From positions 1 to 64,000 of IMG/VR virus record IMGVR_UViG_2926965794_000002: DNA of 64,000 bases, one strand, 5' to 3'. The stretch is from a virus. Lineage: Duplodnaviria > Caudoviricetes. Numbering within the stretch: the stretch's first letter is position 1; each line of letters opens with the position of its first letter. The notes below the pieces were generated by a model. It saw only the letters and a program-made list of their open reading frames with translations. It made no database searches and was not told the origin of the DNA. Position numbers and translations under genes: made by a program. Shown here in pieces: positions 3,802 to 64,000 of the stretch.

Positions 3802-4044
3802 ATGGAAATCCTGCACAGATCCCTTGCTGACCCCGTCGCCGGAAGGATCACGGCGGACGGATACGTTGAGGGTCCAGCCAGCGAAGTGTCGGCCCAGGCG
3901 AGCTACACCTTCGAGGCCGACATTGATGGTCGCTGGCACCGCTGGACCGGGCAGCGCCCTGAGATCGTCGGCGATCGCGCGCGCTTCTGGCTGCGCGACG
4001 GAACACCGATCGGAAGCACCGAGCTCCGCAGATCTCCGGATTGA
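3802..4044 (+). CDS. Small hypothetical protein
   Basis: ATG 15 nt past tRNA-Ser 5' end; 80 aa. Confidence 0.55.
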   Translation: MEILHRSLADPVAGRITADGYVEGPASEVSAQASYTFEADIDGRWHRWTGQRPEIVGDRARFWLRDGTPIGSTELRRSPD

Positions 4045-4156
4045 CCGCCGGCCTCGCCTGTCCCTAATTGCGCGCGCGCCCCGAGGGAGGGTCTGTCGCA
4101 GTCGCTCGGGACGCACGCCCGCTCTTGGCCGCACCAGGAGCGGGCATTTTCATGCA

Positions 4157-4233
4157 TGGCGATCGCCGCCGGACTCGAACCGGCAACCTCCGCGGTAGGA
4201 ACGCGGCGCTCTGTCCAGTTGAGCTAGGCGACC
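4157..4233 (-). tRNA. tRNA-Arg(CCT)
   Basis: CCGCG-TTCCTAC-CGCGG. Confidence 0.93.
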
Positions 4234-4290
4234 GTTGATGCAGGCCTGCCGAGCAGCTACGATCCGAGCTTTCCAAACGGGGTCTTTTGC

Positions 4291-4866
4291 GTGTGGCAGT
4301 GGCGTAGGAAAGCGGCGGGGTGGGCTCCCATCATCGGTTGGTTCTCCGTACTCATCGGCCCGTCCGCAGCCGAACTGTTGAAGCGGTGGATGGAGCGAAA
4401 CGGGTACTTCGATCATCCGGACCAAGGGGTTGCGTGGCTCGTCTCCGTAGTGGCCGGCCTAGCCCAGTCGCACTGGTTCTATCCACTCCTCGCGTTCCTG
4501 TTTGGTCTGTCGATCGGTCTTTGGGCCGATCGGGTCCTGCGCCGGCTGGCGAATGAGCAAGGTGGCGAACTCACAAACCTAGGGCGCTCGCTGCGCGGCA
4601 TGGCAGAGAGCGTGCGGCAAAGCCAAGGTGGCTTCAGAAGCACCTGGCCCGAGAATGTCGAGCACCTTCGCGGACCTCTCGAATCCTATTTTCTCACGCT
4701 GAAAAGCGATTGGAAGATCGCGCCGCTGCCGGCCTCGGTCTTCGAACTGAACCATGGGGCGCAGATCCTGATCGAATACCTTGATCATGTTGGCTCGCAC
4801 CTGATGGGGCGGCAGTTGAAGGCCGCGCAGAACAAGGCTCGCAATTTGGCGGCAGAGATCGGCTGA
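4291..4866 (+). CDS. Membrane protein with N-terminal TM helices
   Basis: Hydrophobic segments; stop 3 nt from tRNA-Arg CCA. Confidence 0.7.
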   Translation: MWQWRRKAAGWAPIIGWFSVLIGPSAAELLKRWMERNGYFDHPDQGVAWLVSVVAGLAQSHWFYPLLAFLFGLSIGLWADRVLRRLANEQGGELTNLGRSLRGMAESVRQSQGGFRSTWPENVEHLRGPLESYFLTLKSDWKIAPLPASVFELNHGAQILIEYLDHVGSHLMGRQLKAAQNKARNLAAEIG

Positions 4867-4869
4867 TCG

Positions 4870-4944
4870 TGGCGAGCGCACGAGGACTCGAACCTCGATT
4901 CCGGGCTTAGAAGGCCCGCGCCTATCCCGTTGACGGATACGCCC
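4870..4944 (-). tRNA. tRNA-Arg(TCT)
   Basis: CGGGC-CTTCTAA-GCCCG. Confidence 0.9.
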
Positions 4945-5005: not shown

Positions 5006-5392
5006 ATGCCATATCAGCGCTTCTTCATAGTCGGCGGACCGGCCCGTGAACGCTTGAAGCGCTTCATCGCCGAGACCGGAAAGCGACTCCACTCGGAAAA
5101 GATGCTGTTTCGCAGGGCCGGGTTTGTAGCCCGCCGCTACGGTGAACCGATCTCGGCCTGTCCGACGAACCTCGGCGGGTTTCCCAACGTGCATTGGCTC
5201 GAGGGATATGCCGGCAAGATCGCACCGAGCCGTGACGTCATCGACGGCGCCTTCAACATGACGCCGGCGGAGCACGTTGTAGCCTTCACCGACTGGACAT
5301 ATTCGCTTGGCCTGCCGGCAGAGATGGCAGCAAAACTGGTTGCTGGCGTTCGGTCGGGATATCGCACTGATGTTCTACCGATCGTGCAATGA
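5006..5392 (+). CDS. Hypothetical protein; stop abuts tRNA-Cys
   Basis: 128-aa ORF filling the inter-tRNA gap; TGA 5390-5392. Confidence 0.55.
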   Translation: MPYQRFFIVGGPARERLKRFIAETGKRLHSEKMLFRRAGFVARRYGEPISACPTNLGGFPNVHWLEGYAGKIAPSRDVIDGAFNMTPAEHVVAFTDWTYSLGLPAEMAAKLVAGVRSGYRTDVLPIVQ

Positions 5393-53594: not shown

Positions 53595-55266
53595 TTTGGG
53601 CTCCGTGTTTCTTGAGGACGGCGGCGATCTGGCCGGCGAGCTTTTCGTCTCGCCGATCGAGCAACGCCACGATGTCGTTGGCACCCAAGGCCTCGTCACG
53701 CTGGTGGGCGCAGTACGCCCGCGCGCCGTCGCGCGAGATCTGCAGATTCTGCATCACAAAGCTGACGTGGCCGCCGTAGAACGCCTTGATAAACTCGCGC
53801 ATGCCGTCGGGATCGGCGGCGAACTTCAGCGAAGCCTTGCGGAGCGCCTGGTTCTCTTTCCGGGCGACTCGAGCCGCGACGGCTTCTGGCGTGTTGTCTT
53901 CGATCCTCTCGGGCGGCGCCGGCAGAGCCGCGGCTGGCTGATCGGCCGCCGGCGGCAGCGCCTGCTGCTGCTGCTGATACGCTCCGCGCGACACCTGGTC
54001 GGCCCAGGGCTCGTTGATCCGGTTGAGGCCCTCCGCGACGCGGACCTCGTTGATGGTCATCCATCCAGGGGCGCCGCCGGTGCCAAGCGCCGCCGACCAA
54101 TAGTTCCGGCGGGCTTCGAGATTGCCGCGCTCCAGCGCGTCGAGATTGAACTTCACCTCGTACAGGCCGGTCGCGATGATGAGGTCGCGGCGGATCGCCT
54201 GCTCGATTTTCCGGGCCCAAGGCCGGATGGTGTACTTCACGAAGTTGATGGACTGCTCTTCGACCGTCGACCGATTCGTCTGGTCGTCGACGCCGAGCAT
54301 GTGCAGCGGGATGCGGAAGAAGCGCGCCAGTTCGGCGATCTGCCACTTCCGGGCCTCGAGCAGCTGAGCCTCGCTCGCCTTCATCGAAGCCGGCTCGAAC
54401 TTGGCGCCGTCCTGGAGAACCGCCGGACGGTGGAAATTTTCCGGGCTGGCGTACTTCTCCATGAGGCGTGCGATCAGACGCCGCACCGCCTGCGGGCTCA
54501 TCCGCTTCTGGGTGGTGATGAAACCGCCCATGTTGAGGTTGTTCGAGAAGATCCGCGAGGCGTACTGGTCCGCGGCGACGCCGAGGCCGATCGACTCGGC
54601 GGCCAGATCCAGCATGCTGAGACCATTGACGCCATCGAGCGACAGGCTCGGGATGCGCAGCACCTCGTCCTGCAGAAGAACCCGAGATCCTCCGGAAGTC
54701 GGGTTGGTGACGGTGAACCGCAGCGTCCCGTCACGAAGCTGGTCCTGCGTGACGCGATCGCTGCGCAGGAATTTAAGTTGGTCGACCGCACCGCGGGCGC
54801 CCGGAACGATCTCGGCGTAACCGGTGCCGAACAGCACCGCATGCAGGATGATCGACTCCCAGAACTCGGCCGCGGTCTGCGTCTTGTTCGGCTGGAAGCG
54901 GATCAGTTCCGCCACGGGATGACCTGGCGCCGGCAGGCGGCCGTCATCCGGCATGACCTTGTTGATCGAGACCGGCAGGCTCGCGATGGTCTCGGCGAGA
55001 ACCTTGGCACACGCCGCGAACGCCGACAGGCGCATCGCGATCATCGGTGTGATCCGGATCCCGGCCTTCGACCGCTTGCCTACCGACTCGTAATAGAAAT
55101 CAGCATCGTCGCCGTAGTAGCGCTCCTCCTGCTCGCCGGAATCGTCTGCACGACGACCGAGCGACCACACTGCGGCAACGGTGTTGTTGATCCAACCCAT
55201 GGGCGATTTCGGTCCTGATGAGTTGCGAGAAGGCGGCGGGGCAGCGATCGCGGCCGCCTGCATCAC
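53572..55266 (-). CDS. HK97-family portal protein
   Basis: IASLP, PN, G.GYAEI, IARFFRIP-like, TINEVR. Confidence 0.93.
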   Translation of the reverse strand: MMQAAAIAAPPPSRNSSGPKSPMGWINNTVAAVWSLGRRADDSGEQEERYYGDDADFYYESVGKRSKAGIRITPMIAMRLSAFAACAKVLAETIASLPVSINKVMPDDGRLPAPGHPVAELIRFQPNKTQTAAEFWESIILHAVLFGTGYAEIVPGARGAVDQLKFLRSDRVTQDQLRDGTLRFTVTNPTSGGSRVLLQDEVLRIPSLSLDGVNGLSMLDLAAESIGLGVAADQYASRIFSNNLNMGGFITTQKRMSPQAVRRLIARLMEKYASPENFHRPAVLQDGAKFEPASMKASEAQLLEARKWQIAELARFFRIPLHMLGVDDQTNRSTVEEQSINFVKYTIRPWARKIEQAIRRDLIIATGLYEVKFNLDALERGNLEARRNYWSAALGTGGAPGWMTINEVRVAEGLNRINEPWADQVSRGAYQQQQQALPPAADQPAAALPAPPERIEDNTPEAVAARVARKENQALRKASLKFAADPDGMREFIKAFYGGHVSFVMQNLQISRDGARAYCAHQRDEALGANDIVALLDRRDEKLAGQIAAVLKKHGAQNGEDAAV

Positions 55267-57005
55267 ACCACGACGTCGTCATCCTCGTAGGCTGAGCCCG
55301 CCGGCTCCGGATTCATCGACATCAGGGAGACGGCGTCGAACACGGCCATCAGGGGATCGATCTTCGCCATACCGCTGATCTGCTTGGTGATGAGCGTTGC
55401 GTTTCCGCGCTGCTCGGCCTTTGCGTTGCCGATCGACCAGGACATCAGCCGGGTGCCTTCATGGATCAGCGTGCCGGCGGCAACCCGCCGCTCCGCGTCC
55501 TTGATGGCGCCGTTCAGCTTCCAGCCCTGCGCGATGCCGACGATGCGCTCCTTCTCGAAGCCGCGGGCCTCGCTGGTGAGCTCGTCCACGATTGAACCGA
55601 TGCCGGCGGCGTCGACTGCGATCGCGGGGCCTTCCGCCAGCTTTCCCGACTCCTCGACCCGCACCACGATGTCAGCGACCGCAGTGACGTCGTCGCCGGG
55701 CTTCTCCACCATCGTGAGCGTGTTTTCCTTGACGAACTCCGCGAGCTCGGTGGCGATCTGCTTGCGGCGCTCCAGCACGATCTCGTGCGCCCAGGCCCGC
55801 GCCCATAGCAGCCACTTCCGTTTCGACAGATCCTCGGCGGCACCAGCTGCCCTCTTCTCTCGCCCCAGCACCGCGAGACCGAGAAGGTCGTCCAGCCCGC
55901 CGCCGTCGATCCCGATCACCGCGACCTCGCAGCGGTTGAGCAGATCCTCGAGCGACGTGACCCTTTCCTGCGACTTGTTCCAGAAGTCTGCGCCGGCCCA
56001 GCGATCGGCCCGCAGCTTTGATCCGATCTGGACGTTGAGGTGCTTCGCAAGGAAGACGTTCAGCCCGGCCTTGTCGCCGCGCCGCGCCTCGGTCAGTTTG
56101 TCGGTGATCCATTCCGAAAAGACGGAAACTTCGAGGTTCGGATTGGTGACGTAGAAGTTTGCCGGGTCGAGATAAGCCTCGGCCTCGAGCATCGCGTCCG
56201 GGAACTCGTAGAGCATCCCGAGCTTCTTCGGGTCCGAGATCTTGCCGTCGCGGATATCGCGGTAGAGCTTCAGCTTCTCGAGGAACACGCCGGTCGGCGG
56301 TTCGTCGGAATGCGTCGACAGGAAGATGACGAAGCCTTCCGGACGTGACACCAAGCCGCCCGTCGCCTCCCGAAACATGGCCTCTGCGTTGGCGCGCTTC
56401 CCGAACAGCCAGAGCTCGTCGATCAGGACGAAGGACGCCTTCTTACCGCCAACGGTGTCGGTGTCGGCGGCCACGACCCGGAGCACCGCGTTCGTGACCC
56501 GATGCGTGATCTGCCGAAAATTCTCCTGGACATGAAGAAGGTCACGCAGTTCCTCGTCGCGGTAGACCATGTCGCGCGCCGGGTCGAACGAGTTCTTCGC
56601 AATCTCGATCGTCGGCGCCAAGATCAGGAGCTGAGCGGAATGCCTCCAGTTCCGTATCAGCGCGGTGATCATGATGCCCGCGGCGATCGTCGACTTGCCG
56701 TTCTTCTTGCTGATCAGCAGGAAGAACTCGTCGATGAGCCTCTTGGCCGTCGAATGGTCGTACGCGCCAAAGATGGCGAGCACGAAATCGAATACCCATT
56801 GCTCGCCGGCCTCGCCAAACGTCGGCGGCCGCATCTCGCCGGTTTCGGAGTCCTCGATCGGCGTGGCGTCGACGATGTGCAGCGACTTGAAGACCTCAAG
56901 TGCCGCATAGGCCTCATTCGGGAAGAGCGGCCCGAACGGGATCAGGCTCTCCCTGGCAACGATCCTCCGCTCCCAGTCCGGGCAGGCCGTTGACCAGGAT
57001 CTCAC
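55263..57005 (-). CDS. Terminase large subunit
   Basis: Walker A KKNGKST, Walker B LIDE, nuclease GIDGG..DD, KIDP. Confidence 0.95.
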   Translation of the reverse strand: MRSWSTACPDWERRIVARESLIPFGPLFPNEAYAALEVFKSLHIVDATPIEDSETGEMRPPTFGEAGEQWVFDFVLAIFGAYDHSTAKRLIDEFFLLISKKNGKSTIAAGIMITALIRNWRHSAQLLILAPTIEIAKNSFDPARDMVYRDEELRDLLHVQENFRQITHRVTNAVLRVVAADTDTVGGKKASFVLIDELWLFGKRANAEAMFREATGGLVSRPEGFVIFLSTHSDEPPTGVFLEKLKLYRDIRDGKISDPKKLGMLYEFPDAMLEAEAYLDPANFYVTNPNLEVSVFSEWITDKLTEARRGDKAGLNVFLAKHLNVQIGSKLRADRWAGADFWNKSQERVTSLEDLLNRCEVAVIGIDGGGLDDLLGLAVLGREKRAAGAAEDLSKRKWLLWARAWAHEIVLERRKQIATELAEFVKENTLTMVEKPGDDVTAVADIVVRVEESGKLAEGPAIAVDAAGIGSIVDELTSEARGFEKERIVGIAQGWKLNGAIKDAERRVAAGTLIHEGTRLMSWSIGNAKAEQRGNATLITKQISGMAKIDPLMAVFDAVSLMSMNPEPAGSAYEDDDVVV

Positions 57006-58162: not shown

Positions 58163-58474
58163 ATGCCTGCAGCGAAGGCGAATAGCTCGGCGCCGAGACA
58201 AGCCGGCAAAGGCCGCGCCTATGCCTCGGCCGGCGCCACACTGCGAATCAGCGCGGCCGAATTCATCGCTTGGCAGGAAGAGCTAGGCCTTTCGAATGGT
58301 GCTGCAGCTGCAGCGCTATTCGTTTCGCCCAATACGGTTACAGCGGTGCGCGCGGAAGGCGGTAGCGCTGAACTGGCGCTGAAGTGTCGCGCCATCGCCG
58401 CCGGCCTTTCGCCAGCGCTACCCATGCAAGAGGCCTTCCGCCTCGGCCGGATAAACGCCATTCTGCAGGAATAG
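58163..58474 (+). CDS. Xre-like HTH protein
   Basis: EFIAWQEELGLSNGAAAAALFVSPNTV. Confidence 0.7.
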   Translation: MPAAKANSSAPRQAGKGRAYASAGATLRISAAEFIAWQEELGLSNGAAAAALFVSPNTVTAVRAEGGSAELALKCRAIAAGLSPALPMQEAFRLGRINAILQE

Positions 58475-58547: not shown

Positions 58548-58576
58548 TTGACAGGCACCGCGCTTTCTAGGCATGT
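58548..58576 (+). promoter_or_regulatory. Possible sigma70 promoter
   Basis: TTGACA at 58548 before the first motif copy; weak -10; similar TTGACA at 63821. Confidence 0.35.
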
Positions 58577-58623
58577 GCGGCGAACGGAACGCGCGATTGT
58601 GCGCAAATCAAAAGGCCGCCGAC

Positions 58624-58860
58624 ATGGCAAAGACTATCGCCTATCAAGTCACAGTCCGCCGCATTGCTACCGGTTGTGACTTCCATATCCGTCTATTCTC
58701 ACAGTCCGCCGAGCATGCCAGCAACCGCGCCGTTGATCGCGCGCGCTTCGCTGAACGTATCTCACTGGCCAAATATCAGGAACTGAATGCCAAAGGCATT
58801 GCGTGCTTTCGCGTCATTTCTTGCGAAGTGTCCGCCGATCAATCGCGGCCGATTGGTTAG
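58624..58860 (+). CDS. Small hypothetical protein
   Basis: After motif copy 1. Confidence 0.65.
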   Translation: MAKTIAYQVTVRRIATGCDFHIRLFSQSAEHASNRAVDRARFAERISLAKYQELNAKGIACFRVISCEVSADQSRPIG

Positions 58861-58868
58861 GCCGCGCC

Positions 58869-59036
58869 ATGCTCGCCGCTTTCATTTCCTTTTGCATCGC
58901 CAACCCGCCCTTTGCAGGTTTTATGCTTGCAGCGATCTATACCCTTTGCTGGGCCATCCTAGCTCCCTTTCTGTATGCGCCGGCAACGCCTCGGCGCCGT
59001 TCGATCCGGCGCCGCGCGCGCCGCAACCGCCGCTAG
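58869..59036 (+). CDS. Small TM protein with Arg-rich tail
   Basis: Hydrophobic N-terminus then RRRSIRRRARRNRR. Confidence 0.45.
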   Translation: MLAAFISFCIANPPFAGFMLAAIYTLCWAILAPFLYAPATPRRRSIRRRARRNRR

Positions 59037-59047
59037 GAGCAAAGCCA

Positions 59048-59284
59048 ATGCCGATTATCGTTTGCCATGATGGGGCGATCTACCGCGCCGAGATTTGGGG
59101 ATTCCGCGGCACTTGCGCGCTAATCCATAAGGCTAGCGGCCGATATGCGGTTATCCGCGGCGCCGAGGCCGCGCGTTACCATGACGCAATCGCGGTTGCG
59201 TATCTGCGATTTGGTAGCATGCCGGGTGATACGCTCTATGCCTGGCTTTGGACCAATGCCGGCTTTCATCGTTTGGCCAGCTAG
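59048..59284 (+). CDS. Small hypothetical protein
   Basis: AGGAG RBS. Confidence 0.6.
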   Translation: MPIIVCHDGAIYRAEIWGFRGTCALIHKASGRYAVIRGAEAARYHDAIAVAYLRFGSMPGDTLYAWLWTNAGFHRLAS

Positions 59285-59339
59285 GCCGCCTTCTAAGACT
59301 GCAACCGCGCGACTGTGCGCAAATCGAGAGGCTAGACCA

Positions 59340-59420
59340 ATGAGAGAGAATTCCGATTTTATCCTGTTCTGCGCGGCGGCTTTCGTCGGAACGTTTGTCA
59401 TTTTCGCTTGCTGTATGTGA
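59340..59420 (+). CDS. 26-aa hydrophobic peptide
   Basis: After motif copy 2. Confidence 0.45.
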   Translation: MRENSDFILFCAAAFVGTFVIFACCM

Positions 59421-59430
59421 GGCGCGCGCC

Positions 59431-59670
59431 ATGGCAAAGCCTGATGATTTGACTTCCTACGCCTCGGCCGGATATGCCGCGCCGGCCTCGGCCAATCCGC
59501 ACTTGTGGAGTAGCGCAACACACATTGCGTTTCGCCTCGGCCAATGGTTGCACGAAACCGGCCGGCCGGCCCCGCGGAACGTCCGCATGTCGCGCGGCCT
59601 TTCGATCCGCGCAAACGATATGCTGATACGCTGGAACGCCAAAACCGGCGCATGCGAACGGATCAACTAA
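59431..59670 (+). CDS. Small hypothetical protein
   Basis: GAGG RBS. Confidence 0.6.
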   Translation: MAKPDDLTSYASAGYAAPASANPHLWSSATHIAFRLGQWLHETGRPAPRNVRMSRGLSIRANDMLIRWNAKTGACERIN

Positions 59671-59764
59671 CGCGATTTGCAGCCTATGCCGTGCAAGTCA
59701 CGGCATAACCGGCAAACCGCCGAAACCGCGCAATTGTGCGCAAACTTGAAAAGGACATAGGCAA

Positions 59765-59869
59765 ATGAAGTATCGCAAGCATGATTCCGACCGCCGGCCG
59801 AGCGACAAGCGGACTCGCCGCGCCGCGGTGCGCGATGGCAAGCGCGCGTTTCTGAATTCTTGCCTCTAA
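59765..59869 (+). CDS. 34-aa basic peptide
   Basis: After motif copy 3; MKYRKHDSDRR... Confidence 0.45.
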   Translation: MKYRKHDSDRRPSDKRTRRAAVRDGKRAFLNSCL

Positions 59870-59882
59870 GGGAGCTAGGGCA

Positions 59883-60179
59883 ATGCCTGCAGTCACACTA
59901 GACGGCGCCGTCTATTTCAATTGCTGTACGGATTACTCGGCGCCGGATTGGTCCGCCTTTCGTTCGCTGGAAATTGGAGGTTGCAGTGTCCGGCATGATC
60001 CGGACACGGGCGAAAGCAATGTGACCGGAAACCGCGCGCCGGACGATTCCGCCTTTTGGACTGTATACGCTCGCGAGCATGACGGTTGCGCGCTCGCGAT
60101 TACCGATTGCGGAATCCAAACGGAAACACACGCGATTGCCGAAACGCTATCCCGGCTTTCCGGCCTTCCCCTGATTTGA
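59883..60179 (+). CDS. Small hypothetical protein
   Basis: GGGAG RBS. Confidence 0.65.
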   Translation: MPAVTLDGAVYFNCCTDYSAPDWSAFRSLEIGGCSVRHDPDTGESNVTGNRAPDDSAFWTVYAREHDGCALAITDCGIQTETHAIAETLSRLSGLPLI

Positions 60180-60267
60180 CGTTGCGACACTGCGCAGCAT
60201 GTCTGCGCAGCACGGAACGCCAAAGCGGACCAACGCGCGATTGTGCGCAATCGAAAGGCTTTCGACC

Positions 60268-60672
60268 ATGAACCGCAAACCGCAATTCGCTTGGCAATGT
60301 TCCTTTATGGGGACTGTCTACTATCGCGTTACGGATCAAACCGGCAACTATGAGGTTTCCATCCGTCATTCCGTTTCCGACTATGAGCTATCGATAGCAA
60401 ATGGCGATGACGTCCGGCGCGCCATGCGGACGGGAATCGGCATGCTTGTCCGATATGCCGAGGCATTGCCGGCGGATATCGTCGCGGCCTTCAATGCCTG
60501 GCGCGCCGCTGAACATGCTGCAGCCATGGCGAAACTTGACGCCGCGCCGGAACGCTATGGCGTCATCGCGCCGGATGACGAATTGCGCAAGCCGCCAATG
60601 ATCGCCCGCGCGGCCTCCTATGATCGCGCGCTGGGATGGATTCCGGTTTGCGAACTGGAGCGCGCAGCATGA
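60268..60672 (+). CDS. Hypothetical protein
   Basis: After motif copy 4. Confidence 0.65.
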   Translation: MNRKPQFAWQCSFMGTVYYRVTDQTGNYEVSIRHSVSDYELSIANGDDVRRAMRTGIGMLVRYAEALPADIVAAFNAWRAAEHAAAMAKLDAAPERYGVIAPDDELRKPPMIARAASYDRALGWIPVCELERAA

Positions 60673-60998
60673 ACCGCGATGCATTCCGCCGCACCATTTC
60701 CGCGCTACGCGCCGAGGCGAGAGGCCGGCGCCATCATGTCGCGACATTCTGGATTGTCTGCAACGGCGTCGAATTCACGGCGCGCGCAGAACGGGCAATC
60801 GGTCCGGTTGATTTGCGGACGTCGCGTCTATCTTGCCGGCCTCGCCGAGCTCTTGCGGCCGAGGCCTTGCGTTGGGCGGCTCATTATCGGCGCGCCGCGA
60901 AACACTCGCCTATCGCCCGCGCTCGCAATCTAGAGGCCGCGCGCGAATGCATCGCCGAGGCCGCGGCCTATCATTCCGTCTTTAACCGCCTTCCGTGA
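60669..60998 (+). CDS. Arg/Ala-rich hypothetical protein
   Basis: ATGA coupling. Confidence 0.55.
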   Translation: MNRDAFRRTISALRAEARGRRHHVATFWIVCNGVEFTARAERAIGPVDLRTSRLSCRPRRALAAEALRWAAHYRRAAKHSPIARARNLEAARECIAEAAAYHSVFNRLP

Positions 60999-61011
60999 GG
61001 GATACCGCACC

Positions 61012-61350
61012 ATGAAAACAGCGCGCTTTTGGCACTATCACAAATCCGGCCTTGTTCGTATTGCGTTGCGGACTGGCCAAACATTGCACCATTCGCACGG
61101 CGCCAGAACAGACGAGGGATGGACGCGCGAGTCCAATATCTTTTCTTTCGACGGGCAAACCGTGACTAACGAATGGTGCGACGATGGCGCGGATTGCGAT
61201 GGACGCCTAACCTGCAATGGCGTTTGCAGCTGCGCGGCCGATAGGCTTTCCGCGGGTTACCATGACGTTGAAAACGGCGCGCGGTTTCCGGACTGGCAAG
61301 CCGCCGCAAGCATACAACGCGATTATTCCGCCGAGGCTGCAGGCTACTAG
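61012..61350 (+). CDS. Hypothetical protein
   Basis: GAGGG RBS; ends QRDYSAEAAGY. Confidence 0.7.
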   Translation: MKTARFWHYHKSGLVRIALRTGQTLHHSHGARTDEGWTRESNIFSFDGQTVTNEWCDDGADCDGRLTCNGVCSCAADRLSAGYHDVENGARFPDWQAAASIQRDYSAEAAGY

Positions 61351-61407
61351 GCCGGCGCCGTCGAATTCAAACGCGCGATTGTGCGCAAATCGAAAGGACA
61401 GACAGAC

Positions 61408-61599
61408 ATGGCACGATATGGCGGCGATCCGCGATGGATCATTACCAAATATCCGGCCAATGACCGGAACGGGCATTTTATCCCGGTAGGAACGCGCGCG
61501 TTCTATTATCCGGTTTCCAAACGCATGTTGACCGGCGCCGAGGCTGAACAGGCAAGCCGCGATTTTGAGGCCGCACGTTTCGACGAAAGCATGAGGTAA
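61408..61599 (+). CDS. Small hypothetical protein
   Basis: After motif copy 5. Confidence 0.65.
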   Translation: MARYGGDPRWIITKYPANDRNGHFIPVGTRAFYYPVSKRMLTGAEAEQASRDFEAARFDESMR

Positions 61600-61605
61600 A
61601 GCGCA

Positions 61606-61905
61606 ATGGATTTTGCAGCATTCCAAGCCGCCGCGGCCGAGTTGGATAGCCGCATGAAAGAGGCCGGCGCGCGCCTCGGCGCCGTGACAGAAAGCCTTGC
61701 GGCCGAGATGGGGATTCCGGCGCGCGGTCCGATGGGATTGACGCCGGACCGCATTAAGTTTGATCCGCGATACCGGCTTGCGAAGGCCGCGGCCGATATC
61801 GCCTTTGCGGAACTACGGGCATTCAATGGCCGGTATGCGCCGCGCTTCAAGAAAGAGATACGCGCCGAGATTGACGCGCGGCGCCGTGCGAAGTGCACCG
61901 CTTAA
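61606..61905 (+). CDS. Hypothetical protein
   Basis: GAGGT RBS; RGPMGLTPD. Confidence 0.7.
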   Translation: MDFAAFQAAAAELDSRMKEAGARLGAVTESLAAEMGIPARGPMGLTPDRIKFDPRYRLAKAAADIAFAELRAFNGRYAPRFKKEIRAEIDARRRAKCTA

Positions 61906-61967
61906 CCTGGCCTCGCCTTCCATCACTATTCCCGCGCGATTGTGCGCAACAGAAAGGACAATGGACC

Positions 61968-63068
61968 ATGCAACAGAGTGATATGATCGCGGCAAAGGCT
62001 GCCAAGGCAACGGAACGGCGCGCGCTGGCAATTATCGCCTATGACAACGCTAAACAGGATCCTGACGGCGCGAACTGGCAAGGGATTGCCGATTTGCTGC
62101 GCCTCTCCCTTCCCTCGGCGAAAGCCAAGGCCGCGCCGGCCGAGACTGGCGCCGACAACGGCGCGCCATGGTCGGATTATGATATCCCGGCAAGCGCGAC
62201 GAAACGTCTAGGCAAATCGCCTATCATCGTTGTGACGTTCTCTTGCGGTGCCGTGGTCTGCGCGCCGGCGGTTTCCCTTCCCGGCAAGCCGGTAAACATC
62301 GGCCGCGGCTTGCGTGTTGCCTTTGCCTTCTACCGCGCGCGGATCGCCCGGGAATTCGGCAAGGCCTCGGCCATTGGTTCGGATTGCGTGAACGTTCCGG
62401 CCATCGTTTCCGCCATCTGTGACGCTACCGGCGCCGAGTATGGCGCGGACGAATGCAACGCCAAAACCTCCGAATTCCGCCGCGGCGGTTTCGATCATGT
62501 CGCGCTTTCCGCCGAGGCCTCGGCCTTGCCGGAAAAGGCCGAGGCCGGCGAGTTGACGCGCGCCGACTTCTACCGCGGCCATTACCTCATTGCCTCGGCC
62601 GAGGCCGAGATTTTGGCCGGCGCCAATGAGGATCGCGCGGCCGAGTTGGGCGCGCAGATTAACGATTATCGCGCGCGCCTCGGCGGCTTGTCATGGCTGG
62701 AAATTGAAGCGCGGCGCCGCGCCGCAATCCGTGAGGCCAAAGCCGCGGCAAAGGCCGAGGCCGAGGCTATGGCCGAGGCCGGCCGGCGCGCCGAGCGCGA
62801 GGCCGAGGCGCACGCAGCTGCAGCCAAGGCCGAGGCCGAGGCGCCGCGGTTGCGGCTTGTCGGGGACAATTCCGCCAGCGTCGAAACCGCGGCGGCGCCA
62901 TCCCTCCCAGATACGGCCGATTCCCTCCCGGTTGCGCCCGCGCCAAAATCGGCCGCGCCTCTCCCGGTTGCGCCTTCCCGCGTCGCGCGCTTCCTGGCCT
63001 CGTCATCGCTCGGCGCGCCTCGTCATTCCCTCCCGGTTGCGCCTTTCTGCGCGATCCGCTCGGCCTAG
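61968..63068 (+). CDS. Ala-rich hypothetical protein
   Basis: After motif copy 6; LPVAP repeats. Confidence 0.65.
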   Translation: MQQSDMIAAKAAKATERRALAIIAYDNAKQDPDGANWQGIADLLRLSLPSAKAKAAPAETGADNGAPWSDYDIPASATKRLGKSPIIVVTFSCGAVVCAPAVSLPGKPVNIGRGLRVAFAFYRARIAREFGKASAIGSDCVNVPAIVSAICDATGAEYGADECNAKTSEFRRGGFDHVALSAEASALPEKAEAGELTRADFYRGHYLIASAEAEILAGANEDRAAELGAQINDYRARLGGLSWLEIEARRRAAIREAKAAAKAEAEAMAEAGRRAEREAEAHAAAAKAEAEAPRLRLVGDNSASVETAAAPSLPDTADSLPVAPAPKSAAPLPVAPSRVARFLASSSLGAPRHSLPVAPFCAIRSA

Positions 63069-63083
63069 TCGGAGTCGCCAGCA

Positions 63084-63281
63084 ATGCACGCCTATGGTTT
63101 CGATATCCAACCGGACGGGGCAAGGTTTCGCCTAGTTGACCGCGCCGAGTTCAACCATTGGGGCGAGTTATCGCCGCGGTTCGATACCGCGGCCAAGGCC
63201 GAGGAATACGCGCGCCGTTGCGACGAATTAAAGCGCGGCAAGCGCTCAACCGTCGAATTGCGCGCTTGGGAACTGACCTAG
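63084..63281 (+). CDS. Small hypothetical protein
   Basis: GGAG RBS. Confidence 0.6.
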   Translation: MHAYGFDIQPDGARFRLVDRAEFNHWGELSPRFDTAAKAEEYARRCDELKRGKRSTVELRAWELT

Positions 63282-63349
63282 GCCGCGGCGCGCCTCGGCC
63301 TCTCGAATTGACACGCGCGATTGTGCGCAAACGGAAAGGAATACAGACA

Positions 63350-63763
63350 ATGCGGAAACCGACTCCCAACAAAGAAAAGGCCGCGCAGCTGGCGCGCCAA
63401 ATCGCCAACATGACAGACGAGCAAAAGGCGCTTTGGCTGCAGCGCGCGCCGATCCTCACCGCGGACGCGCGGCCGATATCCGGCAAAAATCACATGCTGG
63501 CGGCGATGCAGTGCGAAGGCGCAACCATGCTCGGCGGCTTCAATCAATGGCTTGCCGCCGGCCGCGCGGTGCGGAAAGGCGAGTCCGCAATCTATATCTT
63601 TGCGCCGTCCGGCCGGCGCGCACCGGCCGAGGCCTCAGCGCCGCCGAGCGCGGAAGGCGCCGCGTCCGAGGCCGTGGCGGAGTCGGTGCGGTTTATCCTG
63701 GTGCCGGTTTTCGACGTTTCGCAAACCGAGGAAAAGCCGGCCGAACAAGCCGCCGCGGCATAG
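63350..63763 (+). CDS. ArdC-like N-terminal ssDNA-binding domain protein
   Basis: GFNQW...GR.VRKGE.AI.I.AP and VFDVSQT. Confidence 0.8.
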   Translation: MRKPTPNKEKAAQLARQIANMTDEQKALWLQRAPILTADARPISGKNHMLAAMQCEGATMLGGFNQWLAAGRAVRKGESAIYIFAPSGRRAPAEASAPPSAEGAASEAVAESVRFILVPVFDVSQTEEKPAEQAAAA

Positions 63764-63894
63764 TCCCGGCTACGATCGATTTTGCACCCCCGAGCTACGG
63801 CCGATTTTGCGCAACACCGCTTGACAGATTCGGCCGACACAAATTAGAGAAGCACCCCCGCGCGATTGTGCGCAAATCGAAAGGACAGAAACAC

Positions 63895-64000
63895 ATGCAG
63901 CATTCCGCCACCTATTCGCCCGATGATAACAAGCTGCGCCTTTATCCGGCGCACCGCCTGGACGCCGAGGAGTACGCGCGCGTGAAGGCCGCCGGCTTCA
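63895..64000 (+). CDS. DUF3560-like protein, 5' part (truncated by window)
   Basis: ATYSPDDNKLRLY...RLD.EEY.RVKAAGF. Confidence 0.65.
   Translation, partial: MQHSATYSPDDNKLRLYPAHRLDAEEYARVKAAGF

Follow-up and report, generated by a model that had tools for sequence, protein, structure and literature searches.

Start-associated sequences (SAS) were described in 2011 in cluster K mycobacteriophages, together with the elements named ESAS (PMC3203893), and their function was still untested in 2025 (PMC12699233). The SAS consensus, 5'-GGGATAGGAGCCC, occurs with at most 2 deviations, in one orientation, 3 to 8 nt before start codons, and at nonstructural genes only (PMC3203893, PMC12699233). ESAS are imperfect 17-bp inverted repeats with a 4- to 13-bp spacer, for which the authors reported no covariation and favored DNA binding (PMC3203893). 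Here we analyze a repeat of a temperate Bradyrhizobium phage in the window, that is, the whole stretch formed by the first 64 kb of the 109,940-bp IMG/VR provirus record IMGVR_UViG_2926965794_000002, in which a 17-mer, CGCGCGATTGTGCGCAA, folds as a hairpin and precedes, together with a ribosome-binding box, the translation units of an array of small genes. SAS/ESAS are the closest described phenomenon, and the initial annotation of this DNA, which had likened the repeat to the mycobacteriophage sequences, was apt as regards placement and copy pattern. The element is a start-associated module of the SAS kind with unusually clear structural evidence, namely, a covarying, loop-specific hairpin coupled to an extended ribosome-binding box. 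Start-associated phage repeats have been known since 2011 with no assigned function or reader; here, the evidence for a folded single strand is clean, as the loop is fixed and the stems are free.

Like SAS, the repeat is a short, asymmetric motif that recurs many times, always with the same orientation, a few bases before the starts of nonstructural genes; it contains or adjoins a Shine-Dalgarno core, an upstream inverted repeat is frequent, and the gene families downstream are unrelated. All 107 hairpin copies in 11 arrays (L152 to L162) lie on the gene strand, with none on the reverse strand, and in the early array only, the box being 8 to 10 nt and the hairpin 15 to 22 nt before the starts. 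Here, L152 is the window phage's own array, in which a coordinate equals the genome position minus 56999. The two systems differ in that the distance to the start is somewhat shorter in SAS than for the hairpin here, the sequences are unrelated, and the host is an actinobacterium in one case and a proteobacterium in the other. Furthermore, the conserved part of SAS is the ribosome-binding box, whereas here it is the hairpin loop, and the 17-bp ESAS arms show no covariation, in contrast to the 5-bp covarying stem and fixed loop of this element. The promoter-early stem-loop (PeSL) cassettes of T4-type phages (Arbiol et al. 2010, PMC2839356) are similar in that a repeated stem-loop and a Shine-Dalgarno sequence precede small accessory early genes. 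PeSL units are gained and lost by crossover between copies, and some units here appear to have been exchanged in this way. However, a PeSL is about 100 bp long and includes a strong sigma-70 promoter and a terminator hairpin, whereas here, promoters are absent from most copies, the hairpin lacks a U tract, and less than half of the junctions coincide with the element.

Within the window, the 17-mer is present with at most 1 mismatch at positions 58590, 59306, 59727, 60234, 61372, 61933, 63314, and 63859, always on the + strand. The initial annotation had reported a start-associated repeat, always on the + strand, whose Shine-Dalgarno-like end lies 8 to 10 nt before an ATG; this was borne out for 8/8 window copies, and the eight copies are real, the coordinates given for them being 1 to 3 nt off. 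When up to 3 mismatches were allowed, 9 window matches were found, compared to 1.04 expected, and 0/100 shuffles reached 9; the ninth match, at 63798 (3 mismatches), is the tail of a second repeat, here referred to as motif B, followed by TGCGCAA. Two further copies of the 17-mer lie outside the window at 66298 and 68975 of the same record, giving a total of 10 copies in the 109,940-bp provirus, all on the gene strand and all within 58.5 to 69.0 kb. A scan of the whole record by structure, requiring four paired stem positions, the loop R-A-N-N-G-U, and A(A/C) after the stem, returned exactly the same 10 copies and one stray match on the opposite strand. The number expected from shuffles was 0.9. 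In this genome-wide search, which the initial annotation had proposed, the copies were confined to one array.

The eight window modules, all on the + strand, share one plan, with AAGG- or GAGG-type boxes 8 to 10 nt before the ATG. Module 1 (58590..58626) is made up of the 17-mer, in which 58591-58595 pair with 58600-58604, an AAAAGG box, and the ATG at 58624 of a 78-aa gene that runs to 58860. Module 2 (59306..59342) has the loop variant T8>C, a GAGAGG box, and an ATG at 59340, followed by a 26-aa hydrophobic peptide and then a 79-aa gene, and module 3 (59727..59767) has a GAAAAGG box, an ATG at 59765, and the change G6>A. The suggestion in the initial annotation that the core variants alter the loop only is correct for T8>C; G6>A, in contrast, converts the closing G.U pair to A-U. 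In module 4 (60234..60270), a GAAAGG box and the ATG at 60268 open a three-gene unit (60268-61350), a block that is missing from the relative L155. The remaining modules all have the box GAAAGGA: module 5 (61372..61410; ATG at 61408) precedes a 63-aa and a 99-aa gene, module 6 (61933..61970; ATG at 61968) precedes a 366-aa gene without a family match and then a 65-aa gene, and modules 7 (63314..63352) and 8 (63859..63897) have their ATGs at 63350 and 63895, respectively.

Multiple exact copies of the 17-mer were also found in ten other IMG/VR proviruses, and with up to 3 mismatches, each related provirus contains 4 to 12 copies on one strand, clustered within about 4 to 12 kb. A position profile was built from 103 copies matched by a pattern search, the pattern itself having required the stem variants GCGC or GGGC/GCCC. 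The conserved sequences of the module are NGCGCRANNGUGCGCAA and GAAAGG(A). Positions 2 to 5 and 12 to 15 of the 17-mer are GCGC, or GGGC with GCCC; position 6 is G or A; positions 7, 10, 11, 16, and 17 are fixed; and positions 1, 8, and 9 are variable. The flank from -3 to -1 is C/A rich with nearly no G, and the region from -45 to -5 is not conserved (information content close to 0). The end of the 17-mer lies 15 to 22 nt before the start codon in 98/100 modules, and AAAGG follows the 17-mer within 16 nt in 96/107 copies, the linker between the A-A that ends the hairpin (A-C in the provirus L167, described below) and the box being 2 to 5 nt long. Hairpin-free genes of the arrays have a GGAG or GAGG box in 73/138 cases. 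In two array-bearing Bradyrhizobium genomes, the 16S 3' end is ...CACCTCCTTTCT, the 16S rRNA gene of both ending in ...GGATCACCTCCTTTCT, and since GAAAGGA is complementary to UCCUUUC in this 3' end, its pairing partner is the terminal part of the anti-Shine-Dalgarno tail. Folding predictions give a more open stretch from hairpin to start than in hairpin-free genes (unpaired probability of 0.55 versus 0.41; P = 1e-17).

The alignment supports a 14-nt hairpin with a 5-bp stem (G2-C15, C3-G14, G4-C13, C5-G12, and R6-U11) and a 4-nt loop, A-N-N-G. In this register, 99.6% of the cells are paired, two pairs change on both sides, and 0/500 shuffles reach the observed values. C3-G14 is replaced by G-C in the last copy of every element, and G2-C15 is replaced by U-A in one copy of the most divergent element, and G.U appears twice as a variant at 2-15; the closing pair is G.U in about two-thirds of the copies and A-U or G-C in the others. 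The fold given in the initial annotation, CGCGC-GAUU-GUGCG, was off by one base, position 1 being unpaired and variable: with pairs C1-G14 to C5-G10 and the loop GAUU, there are 22 unpaired cells at the first pair and no covariation.

A more distant provirus, L167, was found via its methyltransferase (52% identity) and has six modules with the stems GGUC/GACC, GGCC/GGCC, GCGC/GCGC (three copies), and CGGC/GCCG. All of them keep 'aacc' before the stem, the apex R-A-N-U-G-U, and AC after the stem. When the L167 copies were defined by the 'aacc' flank alone, 6/6 were fully paired, compared to 0/17 of the other loop-pattern matches there, and with L167 added to the alignment, three pairs change on both sides. 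The covariation analysis in relatives that the initial annotation had recommended thus supports the pairing of the stem. Compensated, variable stems with constant loop and flanks indicate that the stem is needed as a structure and the loop and flanks are needed as sequence. Stems that change freely leave no place for a reader of duplex DNA, be it a repressor, a sigma factor, or an ordinary promoter, and point to a folded single strand. The earlier suggestion of a single-stranded start-associated element therefore holds, given the compensatory stem changes, the strand uniformity, and the fixed spacing to the box.

An analogous module is present in L187 (IMGVR_UViG_2513237141_000003), which has a homologous methyltransferase array with a different leader module. 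There, perfect 4- to 9-bp stems that differ from copy to copy carry the invariant loop (U)UCGCAG, followed by a linker of 2 to 19 nt, the invariant box CAAGGAGACCA, and then 1 to 5 nt to the start codon. Of the 30 copies in the whole record (G013), 27 share a strand, and the other 3 lie on the opposite strand in a region where the modules are oriented the other way. Other lineages have start-associated boxes with no obvious hairpin.

Most of the matches listed for the exact 17-mer in 185,579 species genomes are single chance matches in unrelated bacteria; the only arrays among them are in two Bradyrhizobium loci, one in Bradyrhizobium sp. C9 and one in B. embrapense SEMIA 6208. In these two 8-Mb genomes, 8/11 and 10/12 matches of GCGCRANNGTGCGCAA lie inside one prophage array. 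This concentration indicates that the element is owned by the phage and does not serve host gene regulation. The isolated hairpin-pattern matches elsewhere in the two genomes (G011:C11:688893, C45:327239, and C68:93649; G012:C1:1500400 and C4:269848) may have arisen by chance or be left over from other prophages. A blastn search of the phage collection found no similar isolate phage.

Promoter-like pairs are present before just one or two copies per element. In the window, a sigma-70-like promoter on the + strand at 58548..58576 (TTGACA, 17 nt, and GCATGT, a weak second hexamer) ends 13 nt before the 17-mer of module 1, a geometry kept in relatives, and a second one at 63821..63850 (+ strand; TTGACA, 18 nt, and TAGAGA), conserved in at least seven relatives, ends 8 nt before that of module 8. 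Most elements have TTGAC(A/G), 16 to 18 nt, and a hexamer, ending 12 to 13 nt before the first copy and 8 to 9 nt before the copy at the methyltransferase gene. With this geometry, the predicted transcript start falls 0 to 6 nt before the hairpin.

The anatomy, strand bias, spacing, pairing, and conservation of the module are observed directly, and we infer an action as RNA, the existence of a factor, and a direction of effect. With roughly even confidence, we interpret the element as a sense-strand RNA leader hairpin whose loop is read by a putative factor and which controls the translation or stability of the early-array units. The sense RNA is indicated because the G.U closing pair would be an A-C mismatch on the other strand, because the element is locked to the ribosome-binding box, and because the promoters place the hairpin at the predicted 5' end of the transcript; most likely, then, it acts in the mRNA of the early array. 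A sequence-specific factor, encoded by the phage or the host, would read the loop and flanks and could set translation initiation, mRNA stability, or both, jointly for the whole set of units. The hairpin might serve as a 5'-terminal protective structure, a translational operator or enhancer, or a processing mark. The extended Shine-Dalgarno box GAAAGG(A) pairs with the very 3' end of the host 16S rRNA, and as a side effect, the repeated copies sometimes serve as crossover points at which whole units are deleted or inserted. RNA hairpins read by proteins include the MS2 coat protein operator, the T4 gp43 and RegA sites, and lambda N-boxB. The module shares with phage translational operators a small hairpin with a sequence-specific loop near a ribosome site or early promoter and a stem that is free to covary. 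However, such operators number one or two per genome (RegA has many sites, which are unstructured), compared to 8 to 13 units here, and the loop is unlike all of them.

Several points weigh against this interpretation. To our knowledge, the R-A-N-N-G-U loop resembles no known protein-binding RNA motif. There was also no match to an Rfam family at E values up to 1 in the 15-kb array, or in L187 and L167, where the sole hit was to bxd_2 (E value of 0.13) on the minus strand of L167 and is unrelated. The predicted probability of stem pairing averages only 0.51 in the GC-rich native context; the predicted energy of the isolated hairpin is about -6 to -7 kcal/mol. The stem is nearly invariant in the main lineage, and the strongest covariation comes from one distant element (six copies) and a few single events. 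The promoters were called by their likeness to the consensus, their -10 hexamers are weak, and a strict consensus scan finds none on the + strand. Lastly, a role as a DNA hairpin could, in principle, also account for the conserved loop and flanks.

The predicted location at the 5' end of the primary transcript and the more open ribosome-binding region would also suit a purely structural cis hairpin that has no reader, shields the 5' ends of units from 5'-end-dependent decay, and insulates the ribosome site from the GC-rich sequence upstream, its copies being kept identical by gene conversion. The stem sequence, moreover, varies freely in L167 and in the analogous L187 module. Nevertheless, we consider this explanation rather unlikely. 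A7, G10, U11, the 3' A(A/C), and the 5' 'aacc' are constant in L167 despite the diverged stems, and homogenization cannot explain the conservation of a loop and flanks whose stems have diverged. The L187-type module likewise keeps an invariant 6- to 7-nt loop across 30 copies. In a purely structural hairpin, loop drift or a standard stable tetraloop would be expected.

A more specific proposal, to which we assign a low probability, is that the hairpin is the operator of a phage regulon through which a small phage-encoded reader, by binding the R-A-N-N-G-U loop at each unit, switches the first-injected antidefense array on or off as a set, different lineages having their own loop-reader pairs. 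Such lineage-specific pairs are suggested by the (U)UCGCAG module of L187. The leading candidate reader is a 34-aa arginine-rich peptide (MKYRKHDSDRRPSDKRTRR...GKRAFLNSCL; 59765..59869, + strand). Besides the neighboring helix-turn-helix (HTH) protein and the methyltransferase, it is the sole gene product with a related form in all 12 hairpin-bearing elements (12/12), including L162 and L167. A scan of viral contigs found relatives of the peptide in the same lineage only, and this co-occurrence follows phylogeny; it is not independent evidence, which leaves the peptide a candidate only. Its composition recalls the arginine-rich RNA-binding motifs of lambdoid N proteins, and its identity with the hairpin reader is speculative.

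The same peptide, encoded in all 12 hairpin elements, might instead be an antitermination factor loaded onto RNA polymerase at a nut/boxB-like RNA site for read-through of the array; a 5-bp stem just 3' of early promoters and the hairpins without U tracts that precede several copies would be in keeping with this. We find it quite improbable. An array has 8 to 13 copies, whereas lambda has one nut site per operon, and antitermination does not require a ribosome-binding box at a tight spacing of 4 to 8 nt. The loop is A-N-N-G, that of lambda nut being a GNRA-like pentaloop; the record has 10 hairpins, a boxA-like partner was not seen, and an arginine-rich peptide is encoded. The + strand showed no intrinsic terminators between units, and N proteins are far longer than 34 aa.

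The initial annotation had also proposed a repeat that allows units of 1 to 3 genes to be exchanged, and a PeSL-like linker for homologous recombination of such units is doubtful to much the same degree. Clean hairpin-to-hairpin deletions do occur: L157 has the order flank A-hairpin-[one gene]-flank B-hairpin-[three genes]-flank C-hairpin, whereas in the window phage, flank A is joined directly to the three-gene unit and, in L155, B is fused to the gene that follows C. Of the BLAST segment ends, 12.3% lie no more than 15 nt from a hairpin, four times the 3% expected under uniformity, and indel boundaries at a hairpin are twice as common as expected (16.5% versus 7.7%). A gene adjacency test of cassette shuffling gave the opposite trend; it was unreliable because of crude gene calls with many spurious small open reading frames and was replaced by the indel boundaries at the DNA level. 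The comparison of unit content between relatives that the initial annotation had envisaged shows units gained or lost hairpin to hairpin among L157, L155, and the window phage, with most boundaries elsewhere: 148/223 indel events have no boundary at a hairpin, and about 16% of boundaries fall there. The copies of L167, moreover, have no more than about 12 bases in common, and these are scattered; homologous exchange would need more, and yet the element is kept; the fixed box spacing and conserved pairing would also be unexplained. Crossover at the repeat is therefore real but secondary, since most junctions lie elsewhere and the L167 copies persist although too dissimilar to recombine.

About as improbable is a phage-specific promoter, either of the hairpin type that phage N4 extrudes from its DNA or of another kind, with transcription starting just before each box. 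It would suit a contiguous, strand-specific motif 15 to 22 nt before start codons, would not require a conserved -35 partner, and, as a DNA hairpin, would also accommodate covariation. However, the frequent G.U closing pair fits the sense strand, and N4 hairpin promoters use the template strand. The host-type promoters directly upstream of two copies would be overlapped by the element. No sigma-70 region 2 was found in the record, in a search whose positive control worked, and no match to a T7- or N4-like RNA polymerase domain (PF00940) was found, in a search whose control was silent; the largest open reading frames, of 1277 and 1167 aa, encode the tape measure and J-like tail proteins, and none is longer.

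The HTH protein of 103 aa (58163..58474, + strand) is encoded upstream of the first promoter in all eleven elements and had been named in the initial annotation as a candidate binder of the motif. This role is unlikely, as the variable stems of L167 oppose a reader of duplex DNA and the HTH protein comes in three or four sequence types that coincide with three promoter-proximal types, ..TAGGCATGTGCGG.., ..CTGCGCATGTRCGC.., and ..TGTATGGTG.., while the hairpin is identical throughout. Judged from these sequences, the HTH protein is probably a type-specific regulator of the first promoter and not the hairpin reader. One promoter-proximal type (window 58548-58589 and the same region of L153 to L161) holds the palindromic pair TGCGCA-TG-TGCGCA, and the pairing of promoter-proximal and HTH types resembles immunity groups. 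A duplex-DNA operator bound by the adjacent HTH repressor, which would silence the array in the lysogen and be repeated in the manner of cluster A mycobacteriophage stoperators (mentioned in PMC3203893), would fit the single orientation, the intergenic location, the copy at about +1 to +20 of promoters, and the adjoining HTH gene, but we regard it as highly implausible: the compensated stems of L167 leave no constant duplex sequence to be recognized beyond the 6 central bases, the HTH types track the promoter-proximal sequence with the same hairpin in all elements, and the fixed spacing to the ribosome box would be unexplained. Stoperators resemble the element as asymmetric, orientation-biased, intergenic repeats in temperate-phage early operons; they differ as fixed 13-bp duplex repressor sites with no pairing constraint and no fixed distance to starts.

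Several further candidates were rejected: a sigma-54 or extracytoplasmic function (ECF) promoter (by eye, no GG/GC spacing and no conserved -35), an intrinsic terminator (a hairpin with no U tract), an antisense RNA partner (no reverse-complement copy in the record), and a coding constraint (the copies are in different frames relative to their starts). A signal in single-stranded DNA (ssDNA), as also considered in the initial annotation, finds no support; attC sites (57 to 141 nt) and Frpo (about 300 nt) are long, imperfect hairpins associated with an integrase or ssDNA transfer, whereas here there is a 14-nt hairpin in a lambda-like tailed phage. Stoperators, N4 promoters, nut, attC, and Frpo each differ from the element in at least one defining feature.

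The array marked by the module consists of about 28 mostly small + strand genes that run rightwards from 58.1 to 69.3 kb. The hairpin and ribosome-binding box precede every independently translated unit of one to three or more genes, and genes within one unit are close or overlapping and have no hairpin, which indicates that the module marks independent ribosome-loading sites. To the left lies a lambda-like structural module on the - strand, which runs leftwards from 57.6 kb and encodes the large terminase, portal, protease, major head protein, tape measure, and J-like tail protein, the large terminase gene (55263..57005, - strand) being the first. Beyond the array, the - strand encodes replication genes (DnaB-type helicase, primase, and beta clamp) and two further methyltransferases. 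The start of the array probably adjoins the packaging site. Packaging polarity is well established for lambda and SPP1. By analogy with lambda-type polarity, the array would be the last DNA packaged and the first injected, since it begins beside the terminase end and runs in the direction away from it.

Family matches are lacking for most array genes, except those for ArdC-N-like and DUF3560-methyltransferase proteins. The former is a 137-aa gene product with the N-terminal domain of the antirestriction factor ArdC (63350..63763, + strand; PF08401, E value of 7e-6), and the latter is a 786-aa protein with a family match to DUF3560 and methyltransferase (63895..66255, + strand; the window ends at 64000). 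The array thus carries genes of the type found in the leading regions of conjugative plasmids (Samuel et al. 2024, PMC11541004; Shaw et al. 2026, PMC13478746). Such regions likewise have small, one-directional early genes that include antirestriction and orphan methyltransferase genes (ArdC type and DUF3560) with special expression signals, at the DNA end that enters first, a position that would apply here given lambda-type polarity. They differ in using Frpo-type ssDNA promoters of about 300 nt on transferred ssDNA, compared to a 14-nt hairpin in a tailed phage that injects double-stranded DNA.

The genes marked by the hairpin are small, early, and near the packaging end, and they include plasmid-type antirestriction and methyltransferase genes. 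The motif could therefore be used to flag early or counterdefense genes in unannotated prophages, and the module could be used as a compact, portable expression leader for rhizobia. Cultivable Bradyrhizobium lysogens, a hairpin of only 14 nt, and a short list of candidate readers make this an accessible experimental system. If the regulon-operator proposal were true, start-associated hairpins would be a general phage timing mechanism for early counterdefense genes.

Two small hydrophobic peptides of the array are conserved, one of 55 aa with an arginine-rich tail (58869-59036) and the 26-aa peptide of module 2 (59340-59420); both are typical of small membrane-active early phage products. The last array gene encodes a 107-aa HTH-like protein (genome 69009-69332; L152:12010-12333) and is followed by a terminator-like hairpin (L152:12356-12372). 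Upstream of this gene, the GGGC/GCCC hairpin variant and two copies of motif B are present in 10/11 Bradyrhizobium-type elements, the exception being L162.

Motif B, (C)CCYC-CGGCTACGRYCGATTT, is a second strand-specific repeat, with 125 copies on the gene strand and 2 on the opposite strand in the 11 arrays. In the window, two tandem copies of CGGCTACGRYCGATTT (63767..63807, + strand) lie just upstream of the -35 hexamer of the module 8 promoter, and elsewhere in the same genome, the motif is found at 65660, 66277, 66844, 67391, 67420, 68930, 68959, and 69338. It often occurs in tandem pairs and abuts the hairpin (21 copies), the Shine-Dalgarno box (26 copies), the -35 hexamer of the methyltransferase promoter, or an upstream stop codon. 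Its center, CGGCCG, alternates with CGATCG, so that the palindrome is kept. Motif B is also found inside the DUF3560-methyltransferase gene, in the linker before the methyltransferase domain (L152:8661, which is genome position 65660, L154:10434, L156:11535, L158:10944, L160:13545, and L162:9302), and in several relatives, this intragenic copy is followed by GAGG and an in-frame ATG (..AMRAML..). It might mark a separate short methyltransferase isoform or a domain fusion junction.

Other repeats were noted in further loci. L185 and L186 have a start-associated 18-mer, CCCC..CTACGCAATCC, followed by AAGGAG, with 8 to 12 copies per locus, which resembles motif B. In L213, a methyltransferase-bearing phage, tandem CGCAAC hexamers (up to seven) stand directly before several ribosome-binding boxes (4835-4880 and 5198-5225), and L223 has a long tandem array of the 18-nt unit CGCACRGGTTTYCGRNNR at 3809-4310.

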